Below are positions 32,063-36,342 of a stretch of DNA of 38,936 bases, piece after piece. Source of the stretch: a virus (taxonomy: Duplodnaviria; Heunggongvirae; Uroviricota; Caudoviricetes). The notes beneath the pieces are model-generated. The model had not been told where the DNA came from and ran no database searches. It saw only the letters and a program-made list of their open reading frames with translations. A program made the translations under genes and the position numbers. Position 1 is the first letter of the stretch. Each line of letters starts with the position of its first letter. Where the stretch lies: positions 1 through 38,936 of IMG/VR virus record IMGVR_UViG_2802429244_000013. The stretch is one strand, 5' to 3'.

Positions 32063-32824
32063 TCACTTTTCCGGTGCAACGTGGCGGGAAGAATCAGTAA
32101 TCTGTTGAACAATATCCCGGTGCTTGTTCAGCTCCCGCAGCGCGGCGCAGACACGCTCCCACTTCTGGACATGATTTTTCGCCCGACGCAGTTCGCGGTT
32201 TGCCAGATGCAGCGATGGTAAAATCAGGTCATCGGCTCGCGTTGCAGTAAACGATGGCAACGACTGCACAATATCCGCCACAGTTTCTGTTTTAATTTCT
32301 TCCTGTGTTGCAGCTTCCTGTCCCGGTAACGCAACACCTGCTGGTTGAGGAAAGGCTTTACCATCAGTTTCCGTTACCGATGCAGCTTTCGGCTCTGCTG
32401 GTAAATCATCGCCCGGCATGCAGTAACGAAATTTACCGTTCTGATTAATGCGAATCAGACGACCTTTGCTGATAGCCATTGCCAGCGTTGAAGCCACTTT
32501 GCGTGATGTGGTACCGAACAATGTAGCCAACTCATCAGCCGTTTGTGGTCCGCGTTGTTCAATCGTCGCGGTTAAATCGCACTCTGAGATTTTCGCTACT
32601 GTCGCCGTGGTGGTTTCTTCCGGCTGTTCTTCTGGCGCTGGCTGTTCCTGCTGAACGTTGTTATCAGCCACACACCAGGTGTATACGCTTTTATCAACGA
32701 AGCCAGCCTTTTTCAGTTCCCACAGCTCGTTCAGTACTTCTTCACGACTGATATCAAGTCGCGCAGCCAGCTCTACCGACGTAGCTTTTCCCATCGCTTT
32801 CAGTGCGTCAAAAACAGTCTCCAT
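32063..32824 (-). CDS. winged-helix DNA-binding protein (253 aa)
   Basis: N-terminal wHTH-like region ([30 protein letters not shown]) then an acidic/Pro-rich linker. Confidence 0.5.
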
Positions 32825-33522: not shown

Positions 33523-34435
33523 GGCTCACCCCCTTGCTGACTGGTTTAACCTGCGCCCTGACGTGATTTACGTGACGGGCGAATTTCTGCTCCCACTGAA
33601 CCTGCGTGAAAACTTTCCCCTCCGCTGCCCAGTAGTCCCGGAAGGCGGCAAGTTCAGTTGGTGTAAATTCCGGCTCAGGAAGAGCCACGCCCCACAGCGC
33701 AGCCCGTCGTCGAAAATCCGGCGACGGATGCCAGCCATCGGTCATAGGAAATTTCCCGATGGGTTCGCTCAGGACTTCCAGGTAATCAGGTTCCGCTGTC
33801 TGCAACGGCACGCCATTTGCCTCACTGGCCGGAGCACTCTCGCGCACGCGCGCGTTATGTGTGGGGTTTATATATCTGTTATCTGTTATCTGGATACCGC
33901 ATGACAAAGCGTTAGCCTTATCCTTAGGCTTATCCTCAGGCAAAGGGATTGCCTTATCGAATGCCATCCCCAAAGCCTCAGAAACCCCGTAGGACGCGGC
34001 TCTCAGCGATTCCCTGGCCTCCCATTTGAGAGGGCAATCAGGAATTAAAGCGAATGCCTTTGCCCAGGATTTAATGACATTTATCGAGTTTGGCGGATTG
34101 TGTTTCGCAGCATTCGGGAGCCAAAAAACTCTGGCTTTGATATCTGCTTTCACCATGCCAAGATTCATGGCTTCGCCTAAGGCTAAGTCAAAGGCTTCGA
34201 TATCCCACCCCAACTCTTCAGCCATTGCTGCCCGCCCGGCTTTAAACAACCCAGGAATAATCCCGGTAAATGGACTGGTCAGCAGATAAATAAACAAACT
34301 CTGTCCACTTGGAGGCAGAGGAGATAACGCCCTAAATTTGGGATCATCCCATATCGTTATTTTTACCTTGCGATAAGGCTCATTGTTTGCCTTAGTTTTT
34401 GGCATGGGATTTGGCATGTTTTTAGCCTTAACCAT
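33311..34435 (-). CDS. replication initiation protein (YdaU-like with DnaT-like C-terminal motif)
   Basis: Track ORF begins at TTG 34489; ATG at 34435 with GAGG RBS is the likely start; C-terminal FTPTELAAFRDYWAAEGKVFTQVQWEQKFARHV resembles the DnaT/replication-protein DNA-binding motif. Confidence 0.5.
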   Translation of the reverse strand: MVKAKNMPNPMPKTKANNEPYRKVKITIWDDPKFRALSPLPPSGQSLFIYLLTSPFTGIIPGLFKAGRAAMAEELGWDIEAFDLALGEAMNLGMVKADIKARVFWLPNAAKHNPPNSINVIKSWAKAFALIPDCPLKWEARESLRAASYGVSEALGMAFDKAIPLPEDKPKDKANALSCGIQITDNRYINPTHNARVRESAPASEANGVPLQTAEPDYLEVLSEPIGKFPMTDGWHPSPDFRRRAALWGVALPEPEFTPTELAAFRDYWAAEGKVFTQVQWEQKFARHVNHVRAQVKPVSKGVSHAAAPGGTASRAVQEIRAAREQWERENGFISDGNGVEAVGTHGGGLFEPLDPEERGRTFEALDCTDWRDD

Positions 34436-34514
34436 AATTGCCTCATCTGGTGTCGAACCTTCCTCCGGATATAATCTGTGATTCCCCAATCAACAGAACC
34501 AAAGGAGGTTCGAC

Positions 34515-34970
34515 ATGTCTTTAATGGCTGTTTGCCAAAAAATTAAAAATCACATGCGCACTGTGTACAAAATTAACCAGCACGACCACGACATGGTTAA
34601 CCTGGTAACATGCAGGGCTATAGTTCTCACCCGCTTCCACCTGATTCTTACAAATCACTCACGGGATTCTCTCCTGAGCCCCAGTAGCTATGATTCGCTG
34701 GCGAGATTGCTATACCAGGCAAGTGAAAAACGTATTACTGATCCCTTATCTGTTTCCCCTGTCCTTGCTCTTCACATTCTGGAAGACGCTCTCTATGACC
34801 CCCGTCAGGAATGCGACTATCAATTTCTTGAAGCTGAGAAATCAATGAGAGAATGGTTCGTTGAATATCGCGAACGGCAGCAAAAGTTATCCTCAGAGTA
34901 TTCAGAACTTCCGCAACTTCGCTGGAGTGATCTTCCGAACGAATTATTTGCTCTGACCCCAGAAAATTAA
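34515..34970 (+). CDS. orphan hypothetical protein (151 aa) on the opposite strand, between ydaT-like and replication genes
   Basis: Strong AAAGGAGG RBS 6 nt before the ATG; rare-codon-rich; hairpin gagcgcag/ctgcgctc (34997-35020) just after the stop; a long antisense ORF overlaps it. Confidence 0.5.
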   Translation: MSLMAVCQKIKNHMRTVYKINQHDHDMVNLVTCRAIVLTRFHLILTNHSRDSLLSPSSYDSLARLLYQASEKRITDPLSVSPVLALHILEDALYDPRQECDYQFLEAEKSMREWFVEYRERQQKLSSEYSELPQLRWSDLPNELFALTPEN

Positions 34971-35167
34971 TTCTTGGGGATAAATCGTCCATAACTGAGC
35001 GCAGGCTAAGTTCTGCGCTCTGAAGCTTCCGAACCGAAGTTTCTGTACCCCAACCCGCAATTTCTGCATTTTTTGCAAGTTTCAGGATCCAGTCTCGTAG
35101 TTCGCCGGGAGTAAGATTTCCAGCATTGATAAACGGTTTGATTTTCATTGTTAGTTACCCTATTCAC

Positions 35168-35590
35168 TTAATGAACAACAACAGAATCGCCGGACGAACC
35201 GCCGTCGCTGAAATGCGCTTTACGGTAAACAGCCTGGACCGCATCATCATGCGCATCAATTGCCGTACTCAACGCTTCCTGCGCCGCCAGTAATGCACGG
35301 CGTTCCAGGGTATCGAAGATGCAGAGTCGGTGACGCAGCTCCCGCGGAAGGATTGCCAGAATTGCTGGGATCAGCTTCTGAATTTTTTCCCTTTGCGCTT
35401 CCGTTTCACCTTTTAACCAACGGCGATAGATGTTCTGCTGATTGTTCCAGTCCTTGCCTGGTGTCAGAGACAATTCACCTCCCCCCTGGCGCAGATATTC
35501 TTCAGTAATTGCGTTAGCGACCCACGCCTGCCCTTTTTCGGCTGCCAGGGCTAACAACACTGATTCGATGTGCTCATGCCTGATTTTCAT
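35168..35590 (-). CDS. ydaT: YdaT-like protein (Rac prophage toxin-like)
   Basis: 140-aa ORF matching the size and recalled sequence character of Rac YdaT; overlaps the ydaS-like stop. Confidence 0.65.
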   Translation of the reverse strand: MKIRHEHIESVLLALAAEKGQAWVANAITEEYLRQGGGELSLTPGKDWNNQQNIYRRWLKGETEAQREKIQKLIPAILAILPRELRHRLCIFDTLERRALLAAQEALSTAIDAHDDAVQAVYRKAHFSDGGSSGDSVVVH

Positions 35591-35849
35591 GAATCAACTC
35601 CGGTTCATCTTGTGTGTTAGCCTTACATCCAACAGATAAACCGTCGGTTGGATCCGGGTATAAATCCGGCCGTAATTCATGAGGAGTCACCCCAGTTGCA
35701 AGGTAAATTTGACGGACCCGTTCCCCTGTCGGCACCCGTCCATTGTATTCATTTGCCCATTTGTGTATTTGAGACGGCCAGGCCCCTATCGCGCGCCCTA
35801 GTGGGCGAATACCACCGGCAATCTTTATTGCTTTGTCCAAAGCAGTCAT
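35574..35849 (-). CDS. ydaS: YdaS-like Cro-type HTH protein
   Basis: 91-aa ORF with strong GGAGG RBS; MTALDKAIKIAGGIRPLGRAIGAWPSQIHKW fits the YdaS/Cro-like HTH family; divergent from the repressor. Confidence 0.65.
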   Translation of the reverse strand: MTALDKAIKIAGGIRPLGRAIGAWPSQIHKWANEYNGRVPTGERVRQIYLATGVTPHELRPDLYPDPTDGLSVGCKANTQDEPELIHENQA

Positions 35850-35952: not shown

Positions 35953-36342
35953 ATGGACATGAGAAAAAAGCAATACGACACCCCGCTGGCGGAGAGATTA
36001 GATGCGATCTCGCAACAGCATCATTTAAGCGGTTCAGATTTAGCGCGCATCGCTGGAGTGGGCCGTTCGTCAGTTAATGCCTGGAAAAAGAGAGGGACAA
36101 TCAGCAAAGATTCCGCGGCCAAAATAGCGGAAGCCACAAATGTTTCCCTTTCCTGGCTACTGACGGGAAAGGAGGATACGAGCAGGGAAGTGCTTGATGA
36201 TGATGAGAAAGCCCTGCTCGATGTTTACAGAAACCTACCTCCTGTAGAACGCAGAAATATGCTTGCAGCTTTTCAAATGCGACTTCAAAAATTGACTGAA
36301 TTTTACTCGGAATACGTTGATCCGATAACACGTCAAAAATAA
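35953..36342 (+). CDS. prophage repressor, DicA/RacR-like HTH protein without a peptidase domain
   Basis: N-terminal XRE-type HTH (LSGSDLARIAGVGRSSVNAWKKRG); C-terminal helical region resembling DicA; no S24 peptidase motifs. Confidence 0.7.
   Translation: MDMRKKQYDTPLAERLDAISQQHHLSGSDLARIAGVGRSSVNAWKKRGTISKDSAAKIAEATNVSLSWLLTGKEDTSREVLDDDEKALLDVYRNLPPVERRNMLAAFQMRLQKLTEFYSEYVDPITRQK

Follow-up and report, generated by a model that had tools for sequence, protein, structure and literature searches.

Lambdoid prophages reportedly carry independently transcribed accessory genes, known as morons in the sense of Juhala and Hendrix. Phage lambda also specifies oop, a non-coding RNA of ~77 nt that is transcribed leftward from the p_O promoter, between the CII-type region and the replication gene, and runs antisense to the 3′ end of the early gene that comes before it. 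In prophages of Bacillus subtilis, the type I toxin-antitoxin systems bsrG/SR4 and txpA/RatA are convergent and overlap at their 3′ ends. In E. coli O157:H7, the Neuhaus and Scherer groups are said to have described antiparallel overlapping genes, among them laoB, asa and pop. Long antisense overlaps between two real protein-coding genes are rare in bacteria and often disputed because the evidence usually rests on a single genome.

Here we describe a cassette of two small convergent genes, encoded on opposite strands of a lambda-like prophage of E. coli. The window, i.e., the whole stretch of DNA that was analysed, comprises 38,936 nucleotides. The cassette occupies positions 34447–35148, with early regulators (ydaS/cro-like and ydaT/CII-like) on one side and replication genes on the other. 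We refer to its members by strand as the plus gene and the minus gene. In our preferred reading, to which we assign a probability of roughly 0.55, the segment represents an accessory cassette of two genes, placed in a slot of lambdoid prophages whose content varies, and both of its strands code. Both ORFs are conserved, their frames stand in a fixed relation, part of their overlap is doubly constrained, and the leader that precedes the plus gene is common to the cassettes of the slot. The features of the locus are as follows.

34447–34452, plus strand: putative −35-like hexamer at the leader's left edge; CTGGTG here, TTGGTG in most relatives
34451–34460, unstranded: left arm of the inverted repeat, TGTCGAACCT, in the spacer of the putative promoter (GCCGAACCT in most leaders)
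34470–34477, plus strand: putative −10-like element; TATAAT at 34470–34475, and TAATCT at 34472–34477 aligns with TAnnCT in all relatives
34496–34511, unstranded: local 5-bp hairpin GAACC-N6-GGTTC around the Shine-Dalgarno sequence
34502–34508, plus strand: AAGGAGG, the plus gene's Shine-Dalgarno sequence, invariant in all leaders and separated from the ATG by 6 nt
34506–34515, unstranded: right arm of the repeat, AGGTTCGACA; it takes in some of the Shine-Dalgarno sequence, the spacer and the first base of the ATG
34515–34970, plus strand: plus gene, 151 aa, ATG start, product predicted to be all-helical, with an invariant C-terminal motif, LPELxWxDLPxELF
34735–35148, minus strand: minus gene, 137 aa, ATG start, the final small gene in the ydaS-ydaT early unit, ahead of the replication genes
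34735–34829, unstranded: outer overlap, in which the minus frame is open and evolves as a passenger of the plus frame
34830–34970, unstranded: doubly constrained core of ~140 nt, plus codons 106–151 and minus codons ~60–105
34997–35020, unstranded: GC hairpin, 27 nt past the plus stop, inside the minus codons for SAE.SLR

The slot is shared with the ECs1072 cassette of the O157:H7 prophage CP-933P (family NF033230), which has the same orientation and is likewise flanked by ydaT and the replication gene. ECs1072 has been reported as detectably and differentially expressed in an uninduced culture of O157:H7 Sakai (PMC2241611). The leader of that cassette is ~93% identical to the one described here, its plus gene also encodes 151 aa, and it has a conserved convergent antisense ORF that overlaps the plus gene by 269–392 nt. 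The N-terminal half of this antisense partner is related to the minus protein of our cassette (hhalign probability 69%, E = 4e-5). By contrast, the two plus proteins share no detectable similarity (BLASTP E = 21; hhalign probability 0.2%). Against the NF033230 HMM, for which membership is set by a curated cut-off of 70 bits, the plus protein gave no match at E ≤ 0.1 and the O157:H7 protein scored 105.7 bits.

The leader comprises the ~75 nt upstream of the plus gene and was found in 582 of 5,426 complete E. coli genomes (~11%), mostly before ECs1072-family genes. In IMG/VR, it occurs 5′ of at least 10 unrelated gene families, which indicates that the site is a variable accessory-gene slot, with cro/ydaT on one side and the replication genes on the other. 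Related prophages have other gene cassettes behind the same leader and flanks; an uninterrupted junction between ydaT and the replication genes, with this segment as non-coding DNA, was not seen. The first-pass annotation of the sequence had regarded the segment as inserted DNA with regulatory structure. Consistent with this view, the plus gene lies in DNA that is swapped between related prophages and is preceded by a conserved leader containing an inverted repeat. The segment is somewhat AT-richer than the replication genes (GC 0.42–0.47 vs 0.55–0.60). Rfam yielded 0 matches at E ≤ 1 over positions 34300–35300, and literature searches on ECs1072, NF033230, the WP accessions and hotspot- or defence-related work on ydaT retrieved no account of the slot or the proteins. 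In practice, the leader offers a way to catalogue the accessory genes of prophages, among which there may be defence or lysogenic-conversion functions.

Judging from its sequence, the leader probably carries a sigma-70-type promoter for the plus gene, with a predicted start at ~34481–34485. The −35-like hexamer precedes the −10-like element by 17 nt, and its position is conserved across 35 distinct leaders; a promoter consensus scan did not flag this hexamer because only three of its six bases fit the consensus. The TATAAT that had been noted in the loop of the inverted repeat is present at 34470–34475. Across relatives, T1, A2 and T6 of the −10-like element are kept and the middle bases vary (TATCCT, TAGCCT, TATTCT), and several leaders have a TGn extended −10. 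The scan also identified a second promoter-like site, TTGGCA-16-CATAAT at 34411–34438, in DNA that is not conserved between loci. Inspection by eye revealed no LexA, FNR or CRP site in the leader, which has CTG-N15-CAG rather than the N10 spacing of a LexA box, FNR half-sites 6 nt apart rather than 4, and a CRP-like site of which the left half alone fits. The operator of YdaT, a CII-like regulator, is the inverted repeat TTGATT-N6-AATCAA (PMC9986795). A palindrome in the leader, GTGATT-CCCC-AATCAA, was rejected as such an operator on account of its 4-nt rather than 6-nt spacer; a correctly spaced site is found at 35581–35596, the expected ydaS/ydaT junction. A PRE-type establishment promoter was rejected for the leader, since that of CP-933P maps between ydaS and ydaT (PMC9986795, PMC8630535).

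The plus ORF had been described as a 151-aa frame with a strong ribosome-binding site, and AAGGAGG-N6-ATG indeed precedes it at 34515–34970. It is most likely a genuine, conserved gene that runs counter to the early operon. The description of the gene as an orphan does not hold: a search of 1.84 billion proteins returned 23 cluster representatives at E ≤ 0.001. The protein is 148–162 aa long in 22 cluster representatives that range down to 25% identity, and R34, L84 and L89 are conserved in the non-overlapping part. Neither is the ORF rich in rare codons, as had been supposed, strictly rare codons amounting to 6.6% of it and to 3.6–10% of neighbouring genes. PGAP omits the gene, which is unannotated in RefSeq genomes of E. 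coli, and most gene callers outside RefSeq picked it. No informative match to the plus protein was obtained in PADLOC, Pfam, NCBIfam or the PDB. Outside the overlap, divergence at the three codon positions was 0.40/0.29/0.53, and in plus-only codons 2–73 the annotated frame had the lowest pN/pS of the six (0.46). In 19 close relatives, N in the plus-only part was 0.187 vs 0.231 for S, a ratio of ~0.8 that is not significant (P = 0.30).

The 137-aa minus ORF is likewise present at 34735–35148, as first reported, and is the only one of the two that RefSeq/PGAP calls in E. coli (WP_000695003.1). It seemed spurious in a first homology search, which returned only relatives of ≥ 86% identity; this possibility was rejected when locus inspection and a profile search revealed distant homologues. 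Their apparent lack arose because gene callers in the diverged loci had kept the plus ORF. The minus family comprises 18 clusters and matches phrog_37051, a PHROGs family of no known function. Shine-Dalgarno-like sequences precede the minus ATG in most lineages and the position of this ATG is conserved; the stop shifts between lineages to yield proteins of 114–147 aa. Outside the overlap, divergence by codon position was 0.49/0.38/0.60, with codon periodicity in codons 1–59, and the annotated frame had the lowest pN/pS of the six (0.59). In a first sample of 17 close relatives, N in the minus-only part was 0.057 vs 0.212 for S (P = 0.005); in a larger sample of 19, these values were 0.122 and 0.230 (P = 0.076).

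Homology and structure prediction had been suggested for both ORFs. Each proved to belong to a conserved family, as described above, but the models differ in quality. The minus protein is confidently predicted to form a two-helix hairpin (residues 14–64 and 75–112, pLDDT > 90 in both helices) with a variable, disordered tail (residues 116–137), helix 2 being wholly inside the overlap. The model of the plus protein is helical, of low confidence (pLDDT 57), and was judged too poor for a fold search. In a Foldseek search of the PDB, the minus model matched only generic helical hairpins such as FadA and prefoldin (E > 0.3), and PDB sequence profiles gave chance matches only. Pfam, NCBIfam, PHROGs and PADLOC provided nothing informative on the function of either protein; in PADLOC, the minus protein matched JetD at chance level only (E = 0.025, 11.6 bits).

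The two ORFs overlap by 236 nt in the window and by 158–239 nt in relatives. Plus homologues of 150–153 aa and minus homologues of 114–147 aa occur together in approximately nine diverged lineages (Escherichia, Salmonella, Serratia, relatives and metagenomes; 44–58% aa identity), and the relative frame of the convergent pair is identical in all of them. One sequence (P0004) had a seeming double frameshift in the overlap and was discarded, the assembly having many fragmented genes. In the deep comparisons, which are near saturation at synonymous sites and use alignments guided by the frame under test, the core showed low divergence at all three codon positions (0.1–0.38) and synonymous divergence in the plus frame dropped from 0.73 to 0.36. 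In the outer overlap, the most variable position was minus codon position 2, which is plus position 3 (0.54–0.59), and the minus model is disordered there. Among close relatives, doubly non-synonymous changes were the rarest class over the whole overlap (0.126 vs 0.25–0.28, P = 0.02–0.05); in the core alone, where counts are small, their depletion was not significant (P = 0.13–0.29 with 17 sequences and 0.27–0.38 with 19). Synonymous recoding left the minus frame open to its observed length in 4–30% of trials per lineage across nine lineages, which argues that the plus protein does not by itself account for the open minus frame; the nine probabilities are not independent because the lineages have a common ancestry. 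In locus L007, the conserved N-terminus of the minus protein is missing (replaced) and the minus frame is still open; in locus L040, the plus N-terminus is lost and the plus frame is still open. Part of the openness may therefore stem from sequence conservation alone.

The GC hairpin that had been observed downstream of the plus stop is present at 34997–35020, with arms GAGCGCAG (34997–35004) and CTGCGCTC (35013–35020) and a predicted stability of −16.8 kcal/mol (z −2.7). No U-tract follows the stem on either strand, and a terminator scan did not flag it. AGCGCAG/CTGCGCT is kept at the nucleotide level in most lineages, where synonymous sites are otherwise saturated, and persists in L007 although the rest of the minus N-terminus is replaced. 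The hairpin is probably the 3′ stem-loop of the plus transcript.

The first-pass annotation had presented the coding strand as a choice between the two. Most likely both strands code, each ORF representing a conserved family with a non-overlapping, codon-periodic N-terminal part. It is quite unlikely that only the plus gene codes, the minus ORF being a conserved shadow whose apparent N-terminal region is the 3′ UTR or terminator region of the plus transcript. Such a reading would agree with the greater breadth and conserved length of the plus family (to 25% identity), the choice of the plus ORF by most gene callers outside RefSeq, and the clearly unconstrained minus tail. Plus codon position 3 is also the most variable position through most of the overlap, and the hairpin in the minus coding region is kept at the nucleotide level even in L007, which lacks the minus N-terminus. 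However, a shadow ORF would not be expected to have 59 codons of its own with codon periodicity and the lowest pN/pS of six frames, a conserved ATG with Shine-Dalgarno-like sequences, a confidently modelled helical hairpin, or an N-terminal domain in common with the partner ORF of the unrelated ECs1072 cassette. The halving of plus synonymous divergence in the core also argues against it, as does a frame open in nine lineages at recoding probabilities of 0.04–0.30 each; the excess of S over N in the minus-only part does so less clearly, having weakened from P = 0.005 to P = 0.076 with more sequences. The converse, that only the minus gene codes, as RefSeq/PGAP has it, and that the plus ORF is a chance or shadow ORF, is highly improbable. 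PGAP's choice of WP_000695003.1, the near absence of a synonymous excess in the plus-only part of close relatives (~0.8, P = 0.30) and the low-confidence plus model are consistent with it. They are countered by a perfect AAGGAGG-N6-ATG that is invariant in a leader heading at least 10 other gene families, by a family of 22 cluster representatives of 148–162 aa that keeps R34, L84 and L89 down to 25% identity, by the lowest pN/pS of six frames over codons 2–73, and by retention of the plus ORF in L007 without the minus N-terminus.

Two further alternatives concern what the cassette does. The inverted repeat lies where it had been located, with perfect arms of 10 bp rather than the 9 bp proposed, 45 nt apart; a perfect repeat of at least 9 bp arose in 0.6% of shuffles of the 82-nt segment. 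That it folds in the plus mRNA, hiding the Shine-Dalgarno sequence and the ATG so that translation is gated (e.g., by temperature or a trans-acting factor), is unlikely. The 74-nt leader does fold better than all 200 shuffles on either strand: the plus RNA (34447–34520) reaches −27.3 kcal/mol (z −3.8) in a fold that pairs both the Shine-Dalgarno sequence and the ATG, and the minus RNA −32.2 kcal/mol (z −4.9). The repeat is moreover retained in 35 distinct leaders from other loci, the Trabulsiella locus L007 has compensating changes in both arms (CGAA/TTCG to CTGA/TCAG), and the upstream TTGGCA-16-CATAAT could give a transcript with both arms. But that site lies in non-conserved DNA, whereas the conserved −35- and −10-like elements lie between and over the arms. 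The likely start is inside the loop, so the left arm would be absent from the plus mRNA, making sequestration of the ribosome-binding site, as envisaged in the first pass, doubtful. In 28 of the 35 leaders, a C.A mismatch interrupts the stem on the plus RNA; on the minus RNA it is a U.G pair. RNAalifold predicted the long stem on the minus strand only, its sole plus-strand structure being the 5-bp hairpin at 34496–34511, which on the minus strand is followed by a U-rich run and was flagged by the scan as terminator-like. The short plus 5′ UTR alone was about as stable as shuffles (z −0.07). Rather than clamping the plus ribosome-binding site, the repeat more likely forms a stem-loop of the early-operon RNA or acts at the DNA level. 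A rather unlikely possibility, albeit one compatible with our preferred reading of a two-gene cassette coding on both strands, is that the cassette is an anti-phage defence or abortive-infection module whose plus protein is active in the lysogen and is turned off, in lytic growth of the prophage itself, by the minus protein or by antisense transcription. The slot is typical of prophage accessory and defence genes, with variable content of lower GC behind a fixed leader and against the lytic operon, and the two genes are inherited as a pair. Prophage defence systems that require self-immunity are documented, for example HepS (PMC13043305) and Tha (PMC11087260). Against this function, no PADLOC model matched: 0 defence families in PADLOC-DB v2 were assigned to the plus protein or to any of three distant homologues. 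Neither an enzymatic nor a sensor domain was detected. Nor is the slot specific to defence, since another of its cassettes encodes a BssS-like biofilm regulator.

From these comparisons, we infer a working model for the promoter and its start site, the timing of expression, antisense interference, the partnership of the proteins and the translation of either ORF. The minus gene would be read within the rightward early operon. The plus gene would be transcribed against it, starting from a separate sigma-70-type promoter inside the ~75-nt leader. Approximately 140 nt of the 236-nt overlap would be constrained by both proteins, the remainder encoding the unconstrained C-terminal tail of the minus protein. 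In the lysogen, with the early operon repressed, the plus gene may be expressed alone as an accessory moron gene. On induction, strong early transcription would run head-on into the plus gene and produce RNA complementary to its 3′ half, so that the plus gene would be shut down and the minus protein made. The inverted repeat may fold into a stem-loop of the early-operon RNA, immediately 5′ of the ribosome-binding site of the replication gene, or act as a DNA-level site. The two products are probably a functional pair, as the genes travel together and co-vary between loci. More tentatively, and with the balance somewhat against it, the cassette may exemplify a class of interchangeable two-gene modules that is widespread among lambdoid prophages of enterobacteria. 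Each module would pair a lysogen-expressed gene with an antiparallel early-lytic gene, both translated, and the overlap of 160–390 nt, kept across genera, would itself be the switch: induction would silence one gene by head-on transcription and RNA duplex formation, and the product of the other would neutralise or replace its function. The ECs1072 cassette would be a diverged member, and annotation would drop one partner of each. If true, such modules have so far gone unrecognised.

The cassette resembles a moron in that it lies between conserved phage modules with its own promoter-like element and a downstream stem-loop, differs from its neighbours in base composition, and is present, absent or replaced among close relatives. 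It differs from one in being a convergent pair with one member in the early operon, in the ~240-nt overlap of the frames, and in the lack of a U-tract after the stem-loop. The position and orientation of the plus unit match those of lambda oop, but the antisense transcript here would carry a conserved 151-aa ORF and the sequences are not similar. An oop-type antisense RNA was rejected on the basis of this ORF and the lack of an Rfam match. As in the type I toxin-antitoxin systems, convergent prophage units overlap at their 3′ ends, here at the level of the ORFs, and an RNA duplex with mutual down-regulation is possible. By contrast, the partners here are proteins of 151 and 137 aa, and neither is a small (< ~60 aa) hydrophobic peptide; both are predicted to be soluble and helical, with no transmembrane segment in the models. 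A type II system was also rejected, as it needs two co-directional genes in one autoregulated operon and the genes here are convergent. With laoB, asa and pop, the pair shares a long antisense ORF overlap in an enterobacterial genome, of which standard annotation keeps one member. The gap appears to be systematic, in that RefSeq annotates opposite members of the two cassettes, the minus gene in this one and, in the O157:H7 ECs1072 cassette, the plus gene. The pair is experimentally tractable because it is located in an inducible E. coli prophage. Finally, in contrast to laoB, asa and pop, each partner here has a non-overlapping domain of 59–73 codons and is conserved across genera. This comparative evidence is missing from most reported embedded ORFs, and makes the pair a clean comparative test case for antisense overlap of two protein-coding genes.

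The segment between the ydaT/CII-like gene and the DnaT-domain replication gene carries what is likely a conserved antiparallel pair of overlapping genes, set in an accessory-gene slot that is widespread among prophages. Across this stretch, the window matches a prophage of E. coli strain 06-00048 at 100% identity, and the GC content of the segment is moderately below that of the replication genes. RefSeq annotates the minus ORF only (WP_000695003.1, hypothetical); both ORFs are annotated in one phage record. The features are as follows.

35953-36342 (+): CI/DicA-like repressor gene
35574-35849 (-): ydaS/Cro-like gene, first in minus-strand order
35168-35590 (-): ydaT/CII-like gene, second in this order
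34997-35004 and 35013-35020: arms of a GC hairpin after the plus stop codon
34735-35148 (-): minus ORF, 137 aa
34515-34970 (+): plus ORF, 151 aa, with AAGGAGG 6 nt before its ATG
34470-34475: TATAAT
34451-34460 and 34506-34515: arms of a perfect 10-bp inverted repeat
start within 34225-34489, depending on the source (-): DnaT-domain replication gene, after the segment
beyond the DnaT-domain gene (-): lambda-P-like gene, last in this order

The first-pass annotation had described both ORFs, the repeat, the TATAAT and the hairpin, all of which are present. It had also called the segment rare-codon-rich; rare codons occur there without enrichment. As a side observation, a region of the record PP818812.1 ('Actinobacillus phage vB_Apl-pPE4'; L002) is 98% identical to an E. 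coli prophage and has E. coli-typical neighbours (Kil, DicA-like and ydaT); its host assignment to Actinobacillus pleuropneumoniae looks doubtful.

Which strand codes had been left open. In single-sequence searches, 151-aa relatives of the plus ORF reached down to 49% identity and relatives of the minus ORF were found at 86% identity or more only. On that evidence the plus ORF looked real and the minus ORF spurious, an impression overturned by direct reading of diverged loci, where both ORFs occur; the searches had overlooked the distant minus homologues solely through the choice of the gene callers in those records, which retained the plus ORF. Both ORFs occur in Serratia, Salmonella and metagenomic contigs; they converge in every case and keep one constant relative frame, with plus codon positions 1, 2 and 3 facing minus positions 1, 3 and 2, respectively, and overlaps of 158-239 nt. 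In a set of 1.84 billion proteins, the plus family has 23 cluster representatives; its members, 148-162 aa long, diverge to about 25% identity and share an invariant C-terminal motif, LPELxWxDLPxELF. Profile searches yielded 18 clusters of the minus family, one from Yersinia ruckeri. At that locus (L040, 4001-4580), an intact 142-aa minus-family gene lies immediately 3' of a cro-like gene. The C-terminal two-thirds of the plus-family ORF are retained there, LPELQWSDLPSELF included; its N-terminus differs and overlaps a CP76 (CII-like) gene at that gene's start. In Trabulsiella guamensis (L007, 1505-2504), the plus gene is intact and its leader diverged; in the minus protein, unrelated sequence takes the place of the N-terminal half that is conserved elsewhere, yet the minus frame is open for 258 codons. 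The apparent double frameshift in P0004, one of the plus homologues, probably stems from faulty assembly, given the many split genes around its locus (L165, GCA_046507415.1), with ydaT in two pieces and the replication gene in pieces.

Outside the overlap, divergence at codon positions 1, 2 and 3 was 0.40, 0.29 and 0.53 in the plus gene and 0.49, 0.38 and 0.60 in the minus gene, and the annotated frame had the lowest pN/pS of the six in each part (0.46 plus, 0.59 minus). The non-overlapping part of each ORF is diverging in the pattern expected of coding sequence. Within the overlap, plus codons 76-105 evolve as ordinary plus-only coding sequence. In the facing minus codons, 106-137, the second position is the most variable, so the outer overlap would encode an unconstrained tail of the minus protein; the minus stop codon also shifts position between lineages. 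In the core (plus codons 106-150, facing minus codons ~60-105), divergence is low at all three positions and plus-frame synonymous divergence drops from 0.73 to 0.36, which is the sequence signature of a second constraint. When the plus gene was synonymously recoded, the minus frame was open to its observed length in only 4-30% of trials per lineage (nine lineages). In a comparison of 19 close relatives, diverged by up to 7% in nucleotide sequence, doubly non-synonymous changes were the rarest class across the overlap (0.126 vs 0.25-0.28; P = 0.02-0.05, small counts); in the core alone, the difference was not significant, also on small counts. The non-overlapping parts gave ratios of about 0.8 (plus, not significant) and about 0.5 (minus, P = 0.076) in these relatives, pointing to weak selection at this time depth. 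Dual coding, with both strands translated, is likely, though not proven.

The model of the minus protein, of good confidence, is an antiparallel hairpin of two helices (14-64 and 75-112), with the conserved DQIIRSxDHSS stretch at its tip and a disordered tail; a fold search with this model returned generic hairpins only. The plus protein model was all-helical and of low confidence, its conserved C-terminus being disordered. Based on these models, the shared DNA probably encodes a structured helix in the minus frame and a linear motif in the plus frame. No library searched gave a functional assignment for either protein.

The leader, roughly 75 nt before the plus ATG, is conserved far above the coding sequence, and its left edge is the start of whichever replication gene comes next. 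It occurs (~93% identity) in 582 of 5,426 complete E. coli genomes, where the gene most often behind it is the ECs1072-family gene of the O157:H7 prophage CP-933P. In IMG/VR, it precedes at least 10 unrelated gene families, among them proteins of 151, 97, 83, 131, 78, 72, 88 and 75 aa and a BssS-like protein. Because the same leader precedes unrelated families, the site is an accessory-gene slot with variable contents behind a fixed leader; many of the contents, or cassettes, are convergent pairs. The leader was looked for at the Y. ruckeri locus and not found. Other cassettes lie behind it at L043 (3080-3628), L058, L061, L096, L121 and L140 (IMG/VR and E. coli EC11). One type joins an 83-aa plus gene to a convergent gene of 98-100 aa that abuts it; other genes encode a BssS-like 83-aa protein and a 131-aa protein with a hydrophobic N-terminal segment, and a RIARNVAxY-type motif is common to several convergent partners. 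The CP-933P literature places ydaS and ydaT between the repressor and replication genes and does not discuss the slot (PMC8630535).

Element order is constant across 35 distinct leaders: TTGGTG, 17 nt with the left repeat arm, TAnnCT, about 25 variable nt and AGAACCnAAGGAGGTTCGACATG. The TAnnCT element is TATAAT in the window and TGn-extended at several loci. T1, A2 and T6 alone are fixed in this -10-like hexamer, as expected of a real -10 element, and its position puts the predicted start of plus transcription 3' of the left arm, at about 34481-34485.

The inverted repeat is real (P about 0.006 by shuffling) and conserved, and the leader folds better than 200 of 200 shuffles on either strand. 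The first-pass annotation, its observation confirmed and its interpretation partly supported, had taken the repeat as a clamp over the plus ribosome-binding site. This role now has a low probability: the predicted start lies downstream of the left arm, 28 of 35 leaders have C.A as the second stem pair of the plus RNA, where the minus RNA has U.G, and for the plus strand RNAalifold retains nothing but a local hairpin of 5 bp. The clamp is kept alive by a window-specific promoter-like site at 34411-34438 (+; TTGGCA-16-CATAAT, 10/12 matches). This site is located just 5' of the conserved leader, in sequence particular to the window's replication module; if it were active, plus transcripts would contain both arms. 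More likely, the repeat is a stem-loop in early-operon RNA, 5 nt 5' of the Shine-Dalgarno sequence of the replication gene, or a weak terminator-like element on the minus strand, or a DNA-level site. On the minus strand, RNAalifold gives a 19-pair consensus including the 10-bp stem (-15.5 kcal/mol), with little covariation, and the compensating changes in both arms at the Trabulsiella locus would fit RNA pairing or a symmetric protein-binding site alike. Whether the left arm lies inside coding sequence depends on the start chosen for the DnaT-domain gene: TTG 34489 (mechanical ORF list), ATG 34435 (phage record; GAGG at 34443-34446) or 34225 (PGAP). The YdaT operator is of the type TGATT-N6-AATCA (PMC9986795), with 4 matches vs 0.56 expected. 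One, at 35581-35596, is in the expected position at the ydaS end and ydaT start; further copies lie at 34642-34657 (inside the plus ORF, not conserved in comparison locus L038) and 32442-32457, and the leader carries a 4-nt-spacer version at 34479-34492.

The post-stop hairpin coincides with minus codons of the conserved SAE.SLR motif. Its arms are conserved as nucleotide sequence even in lineages that are otherwise saturated at synonymous sites, and it is kept in L007 despite replacement of the remaining minus N-terminus. Although it lacks a U-tract, it is most likely part of the plus transcript 3' end.

In a lysogen, the early operon would be repressed and the plus gene expressed from its own putative promoter, consistent with ECs1072 having been scored as expressed and growth-phase-responsive in uninduced Sakai culture (PMC2241611). 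Upon induction, early transcription would run head-on through the cassette, yielding the minus protein and RNA antisense to the plus mRNA over its 3' half. The two genes are inherited together, and the C-terminal half of the minus gene co-varies with the plus gene; these observations suggest that they act as a pair. The cassette might also have a defence function with self-immunity. Annotation retains just one partner of the antiparallel pair.

As in the window, an antisense ORF is conserved in the ECs1072 cassette; it is about 170 aa long, with an overlap of 269-392 nt. In CP-933P of E. coli O157:H7 strain 4276 (L042, 3213-3773, minus strand), this ORF is 168-186 aa and overlaps the plus gene by 317 nt, and RefSeq annotates the ECs1072-family plus gene only. 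It is conserved in diverged ECs1072 cassettes (L057, L063, L078 and L142); at L105 and L125, the plus gene is truncated and the antisense ORF still open. The window's minus protein and the N-terminal half of the ECs1072 antisense ORF are related (hhalign probability 69%, E = 4e-5); the plus proteins of the two cassettes are unrelated.
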